NCBI GenBank assembly: GCA_016186145.1
Contig: JACPMF010000007.1
Coordinates: forward strand, 19,302-83,301
Direction: 5' to 3'
DNA length: 64,000 nt
Source of the DNA: Candidatus Sungiibacteriota bacterium
GTDB lineage: Bacteria; Patescibacteriota; Minisyncoccia; Sungbacterales; SURF-37
In this document: piece by piece, positions 826 to 61,980 of the stretch
Numbering within the stretch: the stretch's first letter is position 1
How the letters are laid out: each line of letters opens with the position of its first letter
Notes under the pieces: model-generated
The model's database searches: none
Seen by the model: only the letters and a program-made list of their open reading frames with translations
Told to the model about the DNA's origin: nothing
Program-made: the position numbers and the translations under genes

Positions 826-885
826 TCCCCGAAAAAGCTGCAGACTCTTAATCTGTAGATGTAGGTTCGATTCCTACTGGGGGAA
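826..885 (+). other. tRNA-like fragment / pseudo-tRNA (anticodon arm with CTT loop, T-arm GTAGG-TTCGATT-CCTAC, 3' acceptor half), lacking a D-arm
   Basis: Anticodon stem GCAGA/TCTGT with loop CTCTTAA and a perfect T-arm at 861..877, followed by TGGGGGA, which pairs 6/7 with TCCCCGA at 826..832. Only 5 nt separate the acceptor and anticodon stems, so there is no D-arm. Looks like a tRNA 3'-half remnant, such as an old att site. Confidence 0.4.
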
Positions 886-2541: not shown

Positions 2542-4062
2542 TTAATGCGGGGTCTCACCTAATCTAGGAAAAAGAGCTTTCTCTTTTCTAACAACTAATA
2601 CCGAATCTTCAATATGAATCTGCTCCTTTATTTTTTCGGCTGTTTCCGGTAAAAACGGCTCCAGTAAATTGGCGATGGTGGAAATAACATAACCGGCATT
2701 TATAACAACGGCTTTCAAATCATCTCCGGCAAGCATCCAGGGCTTCTTCTCATTGATATATCTGTCGCTAAGCGAAACAAGCTTCCAAACGCTAATCAGC
2801 GCCTCGTTCAGCCGGAACCCCTCAAGCTGGCGCTCGTACTCCAGAAAAACATTCTTACAGCCGACGCGTATTCTTTCTTCAATTTCTTTTTCTCCGCCAG
2901 AGGCGGAGAAATCAAAACGAATCGGCCCGAGCTTCGCGCCAACCGCAGCAATCCGGGCCACCAGATTACCGAGTCCGTTAGCCAAGTCTCCGTTATAACG
3001 CTCTTCAAATTTTTTATAGCTAAAGTCGCCGTCTTCATACGAAGGAAATTCGCGCAAAAAATAATATCTAACTGGATCAGCTCCATATTTATCGACAACC
3101 TCATCCGGCGATATCACATTACCTACCGTTTTAGAAATCTTTTGGCCTTCGACGTTTACAAAGCCATGAACAAAAATTGTTTTGGGCAATTCAAGCCCTG
3201 CTGACAAAAGCATCCCCGGCCAGATTGCGGCGTGAAAACGCAAATTGTCCTTACCGACAACCTGAACGTCAGCCGGCCACCACTTAGAGAATGCTGAATG
3301 CTGAATGCTGAATGCTGAATCATCGTGGCCGTAGCCGATGGCAGAAATGTAGTTTACCAGCGCGTCGCACCATACATACATGGTTTGCGTCGGATCGTCC
3401 GGCACCGGCACGCCCCATGGCAAATCTTTGCTGGGTCGGGAAAAACTCACGTCCTCAAGGCCGCTTTTTATTAACGAGAGAATCTCATTTCTTCTCGAAT
3501 CCGGCAAAACGTTCATGCGTCCGGAAACGATCGCCTGCTCTATTTGTCGGGAAAATTTTGACAACCGAAAAAACCAATTTTCTTCCTCAACGACCTCCGG
3601 CTCTTTTTGGTGATCCTGGCATTTCCCGCCGATCAAATCTTTTTCGGTTATAAACGCTTCGTGCCCCACGCAATAAAGGCCGCGGTATTTTTTCCAATAT
3701 ATATCCCCTGAATCTTTCAGCGCCCGCCACATTTTTTGAGCGCCGGGCCAGTGCCGTTTCTGGTCGGATGTTCGTATGAAATCGTCGTAAGAGATATTCA
3801 GAAGTTTTTGCATATCACGGAACTTCTCTGAATTTTCATCAACCAGCTCTTTCGGCGTTTTTCTTTCTTCTTCCGCTTTTCGAACTATCTTTGCGCCATG
3901 CTCGTCGGTGCCAACCAAAAAACGGACATCGTCGCCCTTAATCCTTCGGTAGCGCGCAAGAACATCGGCAATAAGCGGATCCAAAATATGGCCGACATGG
4001 GGCGCGGCGTTAGCATACGGGATGCTGGTTGTAATATAAAATTTATTTTTTTGATTTGACAT
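2542..4062 (-). CDS. metG: methionyl-tRNA synthetase
   Basis: Class I aaRS HIGH-type motif (PHVGH) near the N-terminus and KMSKS-type motif KISKT. The track ORF extends to a TTG at 4239. The ATG at 4062 (MSNQKNKFYITTSIPY...) is the more plausible start. A divergent gene starts at 4135. Confidence 0.9.
   Translation of the reverse strand: MSNQKNKFYITTSIPYANAAPHVGHILDPLIADVLARYRRIKGDDVRFLVGTDEHGAKIVRKAEEERKTPKELVDENSEKFRDMQKLLNISYDDFIRTSDQKRHWPGAQKMWRALKDSGDIYWKKYRGLYCVGHEAFITEKDLIGGKCQDHQKEPEVVEEENWFFRLSKFSRQIEQAIVSGRMNVLPDSRRNEILSLIKSGLEDVSFSRPSKDLPWGVPVPDDPTQTMYVWCDALVNYISAIGYGHDDSAFSIQHSAFSKWWPADVQVVGKDNLRFHAAIWPGMLLSAGLELPKTIFVHGFVNVEGQKISKTVGNVISPDEVVDKYGADPVRYYFLREFPSYEDGDFSYKKFEERYNGDLANGLGNLVARIAAVGAKLGPIRFDFSASGGEKEIEERIRVGCKNVFLEYERQLEGFRLNEALISVWKLVSLSDRYINEKKPWMLAGDDLKAVVINAGYVISTIANLLEPFLPETAEKIKEQIHIEDSVLVVRKEKALFPRLGETPH
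3291..3318. repeat. heptanucleotide tandem repeat (GAATGCT/ATGCTGA)x4 inside metG, encoding a repeated SAFSIQH-type peptide
   Basis: Four perfect 7-nt units counted directly in the sequence. A 7-nt unit is not a multiple of 3, so any single-unit slippage would frameshift metG. Confidence 0.8.
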
Positions 4063-4134
4063 GGTGTTCGCCCCCATGGTACAGATATTACTACGTTCTT
4101 TCAACAAATCAATTTCGCAATACGGAGGAAAAAA

Positions 4135-4836
4135 ATGGCCAGGAAAAGATTTCTTTACACGATTCTTGCCATTGCTGCCATTATCGCTCTTTTTACGACT
4201 ATTACTGTTTACAAACAAGAAAAAATTCAAAAGATTCAAGAAATAAAAGGGGGTTCAATTTCTACAAATACCGAAGATGCCGCAAAAGACTTACCGGAAT
4301 CCTCCACAATTAGGCAGGCGGCCCTGCTGGCAAAAAATGCGGCTGATAAACAGCGGGCTGAAGAAAAAAAGAGGTTAGACGAAGAAAAAAATATAAAAGC
4401 TGCCGAGGTAATCAGTAACGGATTAATGCTATACTATTTCAACGGTGGAAATAGCCCAACAAACCACATACCCTCCTCTGGCGTGATTAGATTAAAAACT
4501 GACAAATACGACAATTACAATCACAACAAGTTTGCCCCGGAGGTTTTCGCTCTATACCCTAAGTGTATGAATGATGAAGATAGAATGTACGTGGAACAAA
4601 CTTGTATATACACTGCATTCATTCTCGACAGAGTACCGCGCAACAAAGAACTCTTCGGGGCACTAGCGCTTGCGCGAGATGCCGGCATACAAATCGTATT
4701 AACTTATGCTGATAACAATGAACCTGGTAGCTTGTACAAAAGTACTAATACGCGGGGAACACCCCAGATATGGATTAATATTCTCACCACTGACCAAGCC
4801 ATTATAGATTATCTCACCAAAGACGCCAGTAAATAG
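4135..4836 (+). CDS. hypothetical membrane-anchored protein (N-terminal TM helix)
   Basis: A 233-aa ORF with a hydrophobic segment LYTILAIAAIIALFTTITV after a basic N-terminus. No family recognised. Confidence 0.5.
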   Translation: MARKRFLYTILAIAAIIALFTTITVYKQEKIQKIQEIKGGSISTNTEDAAKDLPESSTIRQAALLAKNAADKQRAEEKKRLDEEKNIKAAEVISNGLMLYYFNGGNSPTNHIPSSGVIRLKTDKYDNYNHNKFAPEVFALYPKCMNDEDRMYVEQTCIYTAFILDRVPRNKELFGALALARDAGIQIVLTYADNNEPGSLYKSTNTRGTPQIWINILTTDQAIIDYLTKDASK

Positions 4837-34661: not shown

Positions 34662-34803
34662 GCGAATTTTATTTACGAGCGTTAGCGAGTAACTATAAAA
34701 TTCAGCACCCTGTTAAATAATTTCGCCTCTAGCGAAATTCCCTTGGCAAATAAAATCGAGGGTTTATTTGCCAAGAGATTTAACAGGGTAAAGGTTTTGT
34801 AGC
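34662..34803 (-). promoter_or_regulatory. conserved structured upstream element, copy U3
   Basis: Directly abuts the holA ATG. Stems CCCTGTTAAAT/ATTTAACAGGG, ATTTCGCC/GGCGAAAT (loop TCTA) and CTTGGCAAATAAA/TTTATTTGCCAAG. About 90% identical to U2 outside the covarying positions. Confidence 0.55.
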
Positions 34804-58865: not shown

Positions 58866-60533
58866 ATGCCTATTTTTGAAGAGGAAAAACAAAAAAAGAA
58901 AATTGCGGGCCTCTGGCGCCAAGAGGAAGAGGAAACAACAAAACTGCTTTCTGAAAAATATAAAGTCTCCTATTTGAACCTCGCAATAACGCCCATAAAC
59001 ACCGAAGCATTGAAAATCGTGCCTGAAGAAGAGTCGCGCCGGGCAGGACTTGCGGTCTTCCAAAAAATCGGGAAACGGCTTGAGATTGCCGTCGGCGGAC
59101 CAGACAGATCGGAAACTGTCGCCGCCCTCAAAAAACTCGCCAACGACGGATATGCCTATACCCTCCATCTTGTCTCAAAAACCAGTCTTGAGCACGCGTG
59201 GGGTTTTTTTAAACAGATCGCGGAACGCGGGGATGCCATTACCGGCCACATCCAAATCTCTGACGCTCGCCTCGAAGAATTTCAAAAAAGCCTTGCAACG
59301 CTCAAAGACCTTCAGGGGCTCCTCCACGAAATTGGGACAAAACGCACCACCGACACCCTGGAATTGATCATCGCGGGCGCCCTGAAAACAGACGCCTCGG
59401 ACATACACATAGAGCCGCAAGAAGAAATTGCCAGGATTCGATACCGCCTGGACGGAGTGTTGCATGACGCGGCAGACATCCCTACCGCCGTTTACAAACC
59501 GCTTCGCTCCCGAATCAAACTCATCTCCGAACTAAAACTCAACATAACCGCCAAAGGACAAGACGGGAGATTTACCATAAAAAGCGCCGGAACAGAAACA
59601 GAAGTCAGAACCTCCACCCTCCCGGGTCCCTACGGAGAAAACATTGTAATGCGAATCCTCTCCCCAAAAGCGATCGCGATGAAATTTGAAGATCTCGGCA
59701 TGCAATCGTGGGCAAGAGAACAAATGGAGCGCGAGCTGAAAAAACCAAACGGTATGATCCTTGCAACGGGGCCGACCGGATCGGGGAAAACAACAACACT
59801 CTACGGCTTTCTGAAAAAAATCCACTCACCGGACATCAAAATCGTCACGATTGAAGACCCTATCGAATACCATTTAACCGGCATTGAACAAACACAGGTA
59901 GAACCGGAACACGGATACGATTTTGCTTCAGGGCTTCGCTCCATCATCCGCCAGGATCCCGATGTCATCCTTGTCGGCGAGATTCGCGACCTGGAAACAG
60001 CAGAAACGGCAATGCACGCCTCCCTCACCGGCCATCTTGTCTTCTCCACCCTGCATACCAACAGTGCCGCAGGGACAATCCCGCGCCTTTTAGACATCGG
60101 CGTCAAACCGACCATCATTGCCCCGGCCGTAAATATCGCCATGGCGCAACGGCTTCTCCGCCGGCTCTGCACGGCATGCAGCGTAAAAGGGCCGGCAACC
60201 GCAGAAGAACGCAAAACAATAGCAGCGGAATTTGCTCTGTTTCCTCCTAAAATTAAAAAACCGGACATCCGCGAACTGGAACTTTCCCGAGCCACAGGGT
60301 GCCAGGCATGCAATCTCACCGGTTACAAAGGCAGAACCGGCGTTTACGAAATAATCCTCATCGACGATGCCATGGAAGCCCTCATCTTCAAGGACCCGTC
60401 TGAAGCAACAATAAAAAAAGCCGCCTTTGAACAGGGGCAGATCACTATGCGCCAAGACGGAATACTAAAAATCGTAGCCGGCGTCACAGACCTCGCTGAG
60501 CTAGAACGAGTAGTCGGCGGTGCAACAATGTAA
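58866..60533 (+). CDS. pilB: type II/IV secretion system ATPase (PilB/GspE family)
   Basis: N-terminal GspII-like domain, Walker A ATGPTGSGKTTTL, Asp and His boxes, and a C-terminal tetracysteine (CTAC...CQAC). Confidence 0.9.
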   Translation: MPIFEEEKQKKKIAGLWRQEEEETTKLLSEKYKVSYLNLAITPINTEALKIVPEEESRRAGLAVFQKIGKRLEIAVGGPDRSETVAALKKLANDGYAYTLHLVSKTSLEHAWGFFKQIAERGDAITGHIQISDARLEEFQKSLATLKDLQGLLHEIGTKRTTDTLELIIAGALKTDASDIHIEPQEEIARIRYRLDGVLHDAADIPTAVYKPLRSRIKLISELKLNITAKGQDGRFTIKSAGTETEVRTSTLPGPYGENIVMRILSPKAIAMKFEDLGMQSWAREQMERELKKPNGMILATGPTGSGKTTTLYGFLKKIHSPDIKIVTIEDPIEYHLTGIEQTQVEPEHGYDFASGLRSIIRQDPDVILVGEIRDLETAETAMHASLTGHLVFSTLHTNSAAGTIPRLLDIGVKPTIIAPAVNIAMAQRLLRRLCTACSVKGPATAEERKTIAAEFALFPPKIKKPDIRELELSRATGCQACNLTGYKGRTGVYEIILIDDAMEALIFKDPSEATIKKAAFEQGQITMRQDGILKIVAGVTDLAELERVVGGATM

Positions 60534-60715
60534 CTCACAACCGACAACTTACAACCAACGACACGATGTGCATTGTTATAAGTTGTATGTTGTTCGTTGT
60601 CAGCCAACGAGATAGCGAGTCCTGTTAGAAAATTTACATTCGCCGAATTACAACAACCATTGCCATTGCAACTACTATTGGTTTACTTTTCACCGCACTA
60701 TATAAATTTTCTAAC

Positions 60716-60890
60716 GGGGCGGGCGCCACTCACCTCTGGGCAATACTCCGGTTTGGGAACACGGAGGCCAGGATTTCCTCGTGGTATACCTCAGTACGCC
60801 ACAAGGACAACCAAAGTACCCTGACGGTAAAAAATCCCCATTAAGGCCCTTCGAGAACCTTAATTGCCCAGAGATGGCTGGCGCCCTACC
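60716..60890 (+). ncRNA. candidate structured ncRNA (6S-like closing-stem architecture) with -10-like TATATAAAT immediately upstream
   Basis: 5' arm GGGCGCCACTCACCTCTGGGCAAT (60721..60744) pairs with 3' arm ATTGCCCAGAGATGGCTGGCGCCC (60863..60886). About 175 nt. No ORF. -10-like box at 60701..60709. Confidence 0.35.
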
Positions 60891-60972
60891 GCGCAAGAAC
60901 TAAAAAGTATACATTATCAAAAGGAGGAACGCCCTCCTTTCATTGGTCTTATTATAGCAGATGATGTAAAAA

Positions 60973-61980
60973 ATGTCAACTGACCCCCAAAAGATAAAAA
61001 AAGAAGACGGATCTCTCGACGCCTCATTACGGCCCCAGCGCTGGGATGAATACATCGGCCAGGAACGAACCAAAGAAAATTTGAAAATACTGCTCGGAGC
61101 CGCCAAAAAACGCGGGGATCCCGTGGAGCACGTTCTTCTCTACGGTCCCGCCGGGCTCGGCAAAACCAGTTTATCTCACCTTATCGCACGGGAAATGAAC
61201 ACGAATATCCGCGTTACATCGGGTCCGGCAATTGAGCGAGTCGGCGACCTTGCGTCAATTCTTACAAACCTCCTCCCGCACGACATCCTTTTTATCGACG
61301 AAGCCCATCGGTTGAATAAGCTCATTGAGGAAGTCCTTTACCCGGCGATGGAAACAAGAACCATAGACATCATCATCGGCAAGGGCCCTTCTGCAAGAAC
61401 GATCCAAATAGAGCTCCCCCCGTTCACCCTTATTGCCGCAACAACCAGAATCGGCCTTCTTTCTTCGCCCCTCCGCTCGCGCTTCGGCGTCACTTTCCGA
61501 CTGGATTTTTATAGTAAAGAAGAAATAAATAAAATTCTCCGCCGATCGGCAAACCTTTTAAAAACAGAGATCAACGAGCCGGCCCTCCAAATAATCGCCG
61601 CTGCCTCCCGCTCAACACCAAGAGTTGCAAACCGGCTCTTAAAACGAGTCCGCGACTATGCGGAAGTGCACGCAAACGGCATTATCACAGAAAAAGAGGC
61701 CGCAGCCGCCCTAAAACTCCTGCAAATAGACGAGCTCGGCCTCGAACCGGCAGACCGGCGGATCCTCGAAACCATCATCAACAAATTTAGCGGCGGGCCC
61801 GTCGGGATCCAAACACTCGCCGCCGCAACGTTTGAAGAAGAAGAAACAATCGAGGAAGTATACGAACCATACCTCATGCAGCTTGGTTTCATTGAACGGA
61901 CTCCGCGCGGCAGAGTTGCAGCCGCTCGCGCTTATGAACATCTGGGAGTTAGTTTACCAAGGCAAAACAACCTAATCTAA
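60973..61980 (+). CDS. ruvB: Holliday junction DNA helicase RuvB
   Basis: Walker [10 protein letters not shown], Walker B DEAHRL, sensor motifs, C-terminal winged helix. 335 aa. Confidence 0.95.

Follow-up and report, generated by a model that had tools for sequence, protein, structure and literature searches.

A structured RNA family encoded beside ruvB, on the opposite strand, in Parcubacteria-group Patescibacteria

Does the DNA between pilB and ruvB hold a functional RNA, and if it does, which strand encodes it, where does its transcription start and to which known system may it be compared? The question comes from a first-pass annotation that had placed a candidate structured non-coding RNA of ~175 nt between these two genes of the window, by which we mean the whole 64,000-nt stretch of DNA that was analysed. 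Its naming of the flanking genes agrees with the gene annotation, and the surroundings of the proposed RNA are the following.

58866-60533, plus strand: pilB, flanking gene, encoding a PilB-type T2SSE ATPase
60534-60715, no strand assigned: lineage-specific spacer with many inverted repeats (among them I2 and I3), which separates the RNA from the pilB stop and is outside the conserved family
60973-61980, plus strand: ruvB, flanking gene, encoding RuvB

The kind of element that had been proposed is borne out: the segment has a conserved fold with a long closing stem and internal hairpins. The 24-bp inverted repeat that was said to close it is present, with hairpins inside it, at exactly the positions claimed. 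Its arms of 24 nt (60721-60744 and 60863-60886) are spaced by 118 nt and are 88% complementary, and a manual count of the arm duplex gives 21 Watson-Crick pairs, one G-U pair and two mismatches. The predicted folding energy of the 175-nt segment is -74.2 kcal/mol on the plus strand (z = -4.9) and -92.8 kcal/mol on the minus strand (z = -6.7), and for each strand none of the 200 dinucleotide shuffles was as stable. Since both strands beat their shuffles, and the minus strand does so by more, the structure exceeds what is expected by chance and the minus strand is favoured.

Related loci (designated below by L and a number) were collected by several routes. The best matches of the RuvB of the window are 74% and 70% identical to it, one of them belonging to a Candidatus Ryanbacteria MAG, and by this protein the window falls in the Patescibacteria/Parcubacteria group. 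An nhmmer search with the spacer as query led to L004, and a covariance model built from two sequences led to L001 and L011; in all three loci the RNA lies directly upstream of ruvB on the opposite strand. Metagenome contigs searched with a structural DNA pattern gave 31 matching loci, 15 of which were true by covariance model, and in each of these 15 the RNA lies after the pilB stop and before the ruvB start, in antisense orientation to the two genes. About 20 more Patescibacteria genome loci have the pilB-ruvB order, and their spacers give the same kind of fold. When the first covariance model was run with filters off, the top match was the pilB-ruvB spacer, on the strand of the RNA, in nine of ten loci. 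Model R2, which was built from the trimmed 25-sequence MAFFT alignment, recovers 23 of ~27 Patescibacteria ruvB loci, ten of them outside the training set with E values from 1e-20 to 3e-5, and gave nothing significant on ~53 loci of Bacillota, Chloroflexota and other phyla. In L003 and L010 the RNA adjoins ruvB though pilB is distant or absent, which identifies ruvB as the anchor of the arrangement.

Several other matches were judged separately. A mobile repeat of the MITE or REP-like type was considered as the source of the element and rejected, as the 64-kb window has one significant copy and the position next to ruvB is fixed across genomes. Viral contigs contained no match to either of the P1 patterns. 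The weak match of the first covariance model to positions 1420-1730 of L075, a Bacillota MAG, is regarded as a false positive because it falls on an array of GC-rich hairpin repeats, which also yields spurious microRNA-like Rfam matches. A 1.6-kb pilB-ruvB spacer of a Moranbacteria MAG (L020) has two R2 matches on the minus strand, at 2454-2564 and 3685-3824, and this double match may reflect a tandem second copy or a remnant. Within the window, R2 also gives a weak partial match on the minus strand at 34733-34782 (18.5 bits, E 0.0047), which is probably a chance hairpin.

Conservation of the structure was assessed in two alignments, one derived from the covariance model and the other a structure-blind MAFFT alignment of 25 distinct sequences. 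In the former, 94.2% of cells are paired and 32 of the 52 pairs are changed on both sides; in the latter, 93.4% of cells are paired and compensatory changes are seen in 21 of 25 pairs. The observed values were reached by none of 500 shuffles in either alignment, and slid partners were paired in 35-49% of cells in the model-derived alignment and in 39-50% in the structure-blind one. The orthologous pilB-ruvB spacers, which had been named beforehand as a check, have kept the structure with abundant compensatory changes, and this RNA structure is under selection. The claimed lack of coding potential was likewise upheld: the two overlapping ORFs are without a Pfam match, and no reading frame is open across 25 homologues.

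The conserved fold is a four-helix junction formed by the closing stem P1, the optional hairpin P2, the long arm P3 and the hairpin P4. In 5' to 3' order of the RNA, its parts in the window are as follows.

60863-60892, minus strand: 5' strand of P1, the inner part of which, CUCUGGGCAAU, is the family-wide conserved 'P1 top'
60840-60864, minus strand: P2 hairpin, AUUAAGGUUCU-CGA-AGGGCCUUAAU, with two U-G pairs
60770-60838, minus strand: P3 arm, with the base helix GGGAUUU/AAAUCCU, helices P3a and P3b, an internal loop (..UGG-UU / GUA-CUG..) and a CUUG-capped hairpin
within 60770-60838, minus strand: P3 core, which in the window reads GGUAC-UUUGG-UU-[GUCCUUGUGGC]-GUA-CUGAGG-UAUACC
60746-60767, minus strand: P4 hairpin, CCUCCG-UG-UUCCCAAA-CCGGAG
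60716-60744, minus strand: 3' strand of P1, AUUGCCCAGAGGUGAGUGGCGCCC followed by GCCCC, completing the closing stem

The total length of the RNA in the family is 135-180 nt, with 15-25 bp in P1 and the equivalent of ~25 bp in P3, and ~5 nucleotides of the junction are unpaired in the window RNA. Three parts are conserved across the family at the level of sequence, namely the inner 11 bp of P1 (CUCUnnGCAAU/AUUGCnnAGAG), the P3 core with the consensus AAGGACRU..YUGGUU[hairpin]UUACUGR..UAUCCU, and the base of P4 with its pyrimidine/purine pattern. In the structure-blind alignment, compensatory changes affect 13 of 15 pairs of P1, where one column pair is divided between 13 G-C and 12 A-U, and helix P3b covaries as well. 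In the model-derived alignment, six of the eight P4 pairs are changed on both sides, with 96% of cells paired. The P2 stem is invariant within the clade of the window and is compensated in L011 (AUUGGGG/CCUCAAU). Distant members have either swapped it for an unrelated tetraloop-capped hairpin or lost it: an unrelated hairpin with a UUCG cap takes its place in L027 and L052, and its absence from L016, L024, L037, L076 and L008 results in a three-way junction. In L016, L024 and L037 the 5' strand passes from P1 to P3 with 1-2 unpaired bases, and in the distant members L002 and L005 the 5' side is nearly free of structure and a hairpin occupies the 3' side. A loop-loop pseudoknot between GGGG of J2/3 and CCCA of the P4 loop was tried and discarded, as it is not kept in L107, L105 and L096.

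The first-pass annotation had read the element from the plus strand, an orientation that is contradicted by five lines of evidence; the RNA is encoded on the minus strand, opposite both pilB and ruvB. Among the consensus pairs of 14 distinct homologues, G-U and A-C combinations number 77 and 17, respectively, when read on the minus strand, and a plus-strand RNA would have A-C mismatches in place of the two U-G pairs of P2. With the covariance models, the minus strand outscores its mirror image by a factor of 5-6 (199.5 versus 30.7 bits for model R1, and 119.7 versus 21.6 bits for model R2). U-runs follow P1 on the minus strand only. The promoter scan of 60400-61100 found nothing on the plus strand upstream of the structure, and its one site, described below, is on the minus strand. 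Finally, the box TATATAAAT, to which the role of a -10 promoter element had been given, does exist as letters (60699-60707, 8 nt 5' of the GGGG at 60716), but that role is not supported: the box was not reported by the promoter scan, it is missing at the equivalent site of the closest relatives L094 and L004, and it is part of an arm (60700-60718) of the separate inverted repeat I3. A plus-strand element could in principle be an sRNA, or an intercistronic structure or terminator inside a pilB-ruvB transcript, as both neighbouring genes are on the plus strand, that strand also folds well (z = -4.9) and it has a weak terminator-like site at 60920-60940. Against the pairing asymmetry, the model scores, the position of the U-runs, the result of the promoter scan and the unconserved box, we consider such an element very unlikely.

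Transcription of the minus strand would be driven by a sigma-70 promoter, TTGACA-17-TGcTATAAT (60979 to 60951, minus strand), which has 12 of 12 consensus matches and is the sole site reported in 60400-61100. The promoter and leader features are the following.

60974-60979, minus strand: -35 hexamer TTGACA, from the promoter scan
60951-60959, minus strand: extended -10 element TGcTATAAT, with the hexamer at 60956 to 60951 and a 17-nt spacer to the -35
60942-60946, minus strand: predicted transcription start, ~7 nt past the -10, placed purely by promoter geometry
60915-60940, minus strand: terminator-like leader hairpin T1, AAAGGAGG-GCGUU-CCUCCUUU and then UUGAUAAU, between the start site and P1

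The motif TTGACA-17-TGnTAnnnT is present in the sense of the RNA in 22 of 23 loci, eleven of which have 12/12 matches, and no ruvB-sense promoter was found at equal threshold in the loci scanned. On the plus strand the -35 hexamer is TGTCAA within ATGTCAA, which comprises the ruvB start codon (60973-60975), a Ser codon and the next base, so that RuvB begins with 'MS'. This overlap between the -35 and the start codon is seen in ~17 of 24 loci (the window, L094, L109, L108, L105, L096, L081, L001, L090, L002, L005, L013, L027, L031, L052, L068 and L033). The -10 and P1 are 9 to 291 nt apart, depending on the locus, whereas the position of the promoter relative to ruvB is fixed. As the promoter is anchored on ruvB and not on the RNA core, its conservation could partly serve regulation of ruvB instead of production of the RNA.

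This arrangement bears on the possibility that the main role of the unit is in cis, that is, control of ruvB, and possibly of the 3' end of pilB, by a divergent or antisense transcription unit. Such control would operate through promoter occlusion or transcriptional interference, together with pairing with plus-strand read-through, and the fold would serve mainly for stability and termination. The -35 on the ruvB start codon and the promoter held at a fixed position relative to ruvB, at variable distance from the core, would fit it. So would the lack of a ruvB-sense promoter, as a result of which transcription may reach ruvB by way of the antisense of the RNA gene, and the end of the RNA, which in most relatives often lies 8-30 nt from the pilB stop. 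However, a role purely in cis leaves unexplained the invariant helices and the internal-loop module of P3 across lineages in which RuvB is only ~60-75% identical, and the conserved core overlaps no gene. We therefore regard it as rather unlikely to be the main role; cis and trans roles are mutually compatible.

In the leader, T1-like hairpins of the form GGAGGG...CCCUC with a U-tract are found in eight loci of the clade of the window, and similar leader hairpins occur also in L027 and L036. T1 may be an attenuator or a 5' stabiliser; supposing that it functions as a terminator, it would curb synthesis of the RNA. A mini-ORF spanning T1 (60943 to 60917, MKGGRSSF and a stop) was rejected, since it is not conserved in L004, L102 and L109, and no consistent candidate for a second promoter was found between T1 and P1. 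At the other end of the RNA, P1 is followed within 30 nt by four or more consecutive U in 22 of 35 family members (for example, GGGAGAUUUUUUGU), in which P1 would therefore double as an intrinsic terminator on the minus strand. The P1 of the window copy is without a U-run that would define its 3' end, and L011 has a separate canonical terminator.

The next gene downstream of the RNA is the convergent pilB in the window and in 18 loci examined, the exception being the ORF inserted in L004. This gene order weighs against reading the RNA as a riboswitch or some other cis-acting leader of the gene that follows it, a reading to which the aptamer-like junction fold with its conserved core lends some appeal, as does the same-strand membrane ORF of 114 aa after the RNA in L004. 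With a convergent gene next downstream in the window and in essentially all other loci, a P1 that forms a very stable putative terminator and for which alternative pairing is not evident, and no match to a riboswitch family, we hold a leader function to be extremely improbable.

The first part of the intergenic region, between the pilB stop and the RNA, does contain the additional inverted repeats that had been noticed there. I2 (60532-60555 / 60575-60598) is 79% complementary and I3 (60621-60639 / 60700-60718) is 89% complementary. Neither the rest of the window nor any related locus contains a match to this spacer of ~180 nt (60534-60715), and other insertions are found at the same place in L094 (a putative RelE/ParE-like pair) and L004 (a small membrane ORF). 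To judge by these sequences, the interval resembles a hot spot for insertions more than a part of the RNA. In L094, the closest relative, positions 1514-2183 between pilB and the RNA hold two plus-strand ORFs of 138 and 83 aa, and the 83-aa product has, by eye, the look of a RelE/ParE-type toxin. A separate observation concerns ruvB of L004 (2473-4825), which is interrupted by a stretch of N and by a large insertion; the product of the ORF 2639-4825 has 728 aa and becomes similar to RuvB again from residue 64. The insertion may be an intein in the P-loop region.

Taken as a whole, these results make it very probable that 60716-60892 contains the core of a structured, non-coding sRNA gene, transcribed independently from the minus strand, divergent from ruvB and convergent with pilB. 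In the mechanism that we propose, RNA polymerase would start at the sigma-70 promoter 60979 to 60951, with its -35 on the ruvB start codon, and a leader of ~50 nt with the U-tract hairpin would precede the core. The core folds into a four-way junction of P1, P2, P3 (an irregular arm with an internal-loop module and a tetraloop cap) and P4, and P1 with the U-run would act as an intrinsic terminator in most relatives. From the sequence evidence we infer an abundant, stable and trans-acting RNA, whose invariant helices (the P1 top CUCUnnGCAAU/AUUGCnnAGAG and the P3 core) would dock a conserved macromolecular partner, most probably a protein. RNA polymerase, bound in the fashion of 6S RNA, would be the most concrete candidate for this partner, although two of the comparisons by which 6S membership was judged, described below, turned out negative. 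Because the promoter is on the ruvB start codon, its firing and the rightward transcription of ruvB should interfere with each other, and expression of the two would thereby be linked. As for physiological function, we tentatively propose a housekeeping RNA specific to Parcubacteria-type CPR bacteria, transcribed from a promoter on the ruvB start. It could be a re-invented closed-junction regulator of the 6S type or the RNA subunit of an unrecognised ribonucleoprotein that is coupled reciprocally to RuvB expression, a proposal that is possible rather than probable at present.

The CPR/Patescibacteria form a huge bacterial branch, for the most part uncultured, whose genomes are tiny and in which few regulators are known; to our knowledge, as in the literature searched, there is no account of structured RNAs specific to their lineage. 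The strong covariation, the consensus promoter, the fixed address and the presence in most Parcubacteria-group ruvB loci make it unlikely that this RNA of ~170 nt is dispensable. It provides a concrete target in the search for a missing 6S-like regulator or a new RNA-protein machine in CPR bacteria. The overlap of the promoter with the ruvB start suggests, in addition, a simple switch by which the cell would either synthesise the RNA or express a DNA-repair gene.

Comparison with known systems began with the Rfam scan that the first-pass annotation had suggested beforehand together with its likening of the RNA to 6S. At the gathering score, Rfam 15 reported two tRNAs only in the whole window and nothing in 16 related loci. 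The second of the two is a short one (826-885, plus strand, 60 nt, 35.5 bits), located after tRNA-Lys(CTT) at 738-812 and in a place where ARAGORN is silent. With E <= 10 and relaxed filters, only microRNA-like chance matches were obtained in three divergent representatives (window 60400-61100, L031 3640-4061 and L002 2487-2944). ARAGORN found no tRNA or tmRNA in the region of the RNA. Inspection by eye discarded SRP RNA, RNase P RNA and 5S rRNA, an 11-nt tetraloop receptor and a mimic of the L11-binding region of 23S rRNA, the conserved motifs of each being missing. In the literature searched, the coverage of which is incomplete, neither this RNA nor a 6S of CPR bacteria was found to be described, and two surveys of orphan structured non-coding RNAs do not mention the present RNA (PMC11109978, PMC8632094). 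The RNA constitutes a family that is uncatalogued in Rfam and is located beside ruvB across Parcubacteria-group Patescibacteria.

6S RNA is a rod of ~200 nt, with closing and apical stems that are each broken by small loops; it binds the sigma-70/sigma-A holoenzyme and templates product RNAs. The present RNA resembles 6S (ssrS; RF00013) in its size of ~150-200 nt and in the rod shape given by a closing stem formed from the two ends and a long imperfect apical arm, as well as in its strong housekeeping-type promoter and its lineage-wide occurrence at one copy per locus. The hallmark of 6S is a large central bubble with relatively little structure, a mimic of an open promoter; 6S has been reported for the vast majority of bacteria, and 6S-1 of B. 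subtilis has a hairpin on the 3' side next to this centre (PMC8876501); a hairpin on the 3' side by the centre is shared by the RNA described here. In contrast, the latter has at its centre a three- or four-way junction that is closed, its hairpins covarying or being capped by tetraloops, instead of a largely unpaired bubble. An open bubble is contradicted by the covariation of P4, by the stable hairpin P2 and by the lack of an unpaired 5' strand in some members, and several members offer no such strand that could be used as a template. Further differences from 6S are the lack of a covariance-model match, the conservation of the helix sequences themselves and the fixed synteny with ruvB. Membership of 6S, to which the earlier likening pointed, is accordingly not supported by either the family search or the form of the centre.

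These likenesses and differences can also be weighed for a patescibacterial 6S RNA in a wider sense, homologue or functional analogue, that would imitate an open promoter and in this way bind the sigma-70 holoenzyme. In such an RNA, P3 would correspond to the upstream '-35-like' arm and P1 to the downstream duplex, and the 5' strand of P1 would be the template for short product RNAs (5'-AUUGCC...). A length of 135-180 nt with two long imperfect arms around a centre, the consensus housekeeping promoter, a single copy per locus in most members of the whole lineage and a sequence-conserved helix adjacent to the junction, the would-be template, are all consistent with this function. The same is true of L002 and L005, in which a near-unstructured 5' side and a 3'-side hairpin recall B. 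subtilis 6S-1, and of the fact that no 6S was detected in these loci despite the very wide occurrence reported for it among bacteria (PMC8876501). The Rfam 6S model, however, is silent at E <= 10 for the three divergent representatives, the junction centre is tight, with a covarying P4 and a stable P2 that is UUCG-capped in some members, and L016, L024 and L037 leave no bubble for a template. A 6S RNA of this kind appears to us a doubtful explanation.

The housekeeping RNA that we propose has features in common with other known systems as well. Y RNA and YrlA have a terminal stem formed from both ends and carrying conserved sequence, additional hairpin modules and a U-rich 3' tail. The present RNA shares the long end-formed stem with conserved sequence, the additional hairpins and the U-rich 3' tail; it differs in having no Rfam match and no recognisable bulged Ro-binding helix, and no rsr (Ro) gene was found among the neighbouring genes examined. 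Divergent or overlapping promoters and cis-antisense RNAs are comparable in that the promoter lies on the 5' end of the opposed ruvB and interference is to be expected, whereas the core of our RNA overlaps no gene and has an elaborate covarying fold. Orphan non-coding RNA motifs have been brought to light by comparative genomics, for example the raiA motif and other Breaker/Weinberg candidates. Like them, the ruvB-associated RNA is defined by covariation, has its own promoter and, in most members, a putative terminator, shows no coding link and belongs to a single lineage; unlike them, it falls outside the Rfam 15 families, has another architecture and is found in Patescibacteria.
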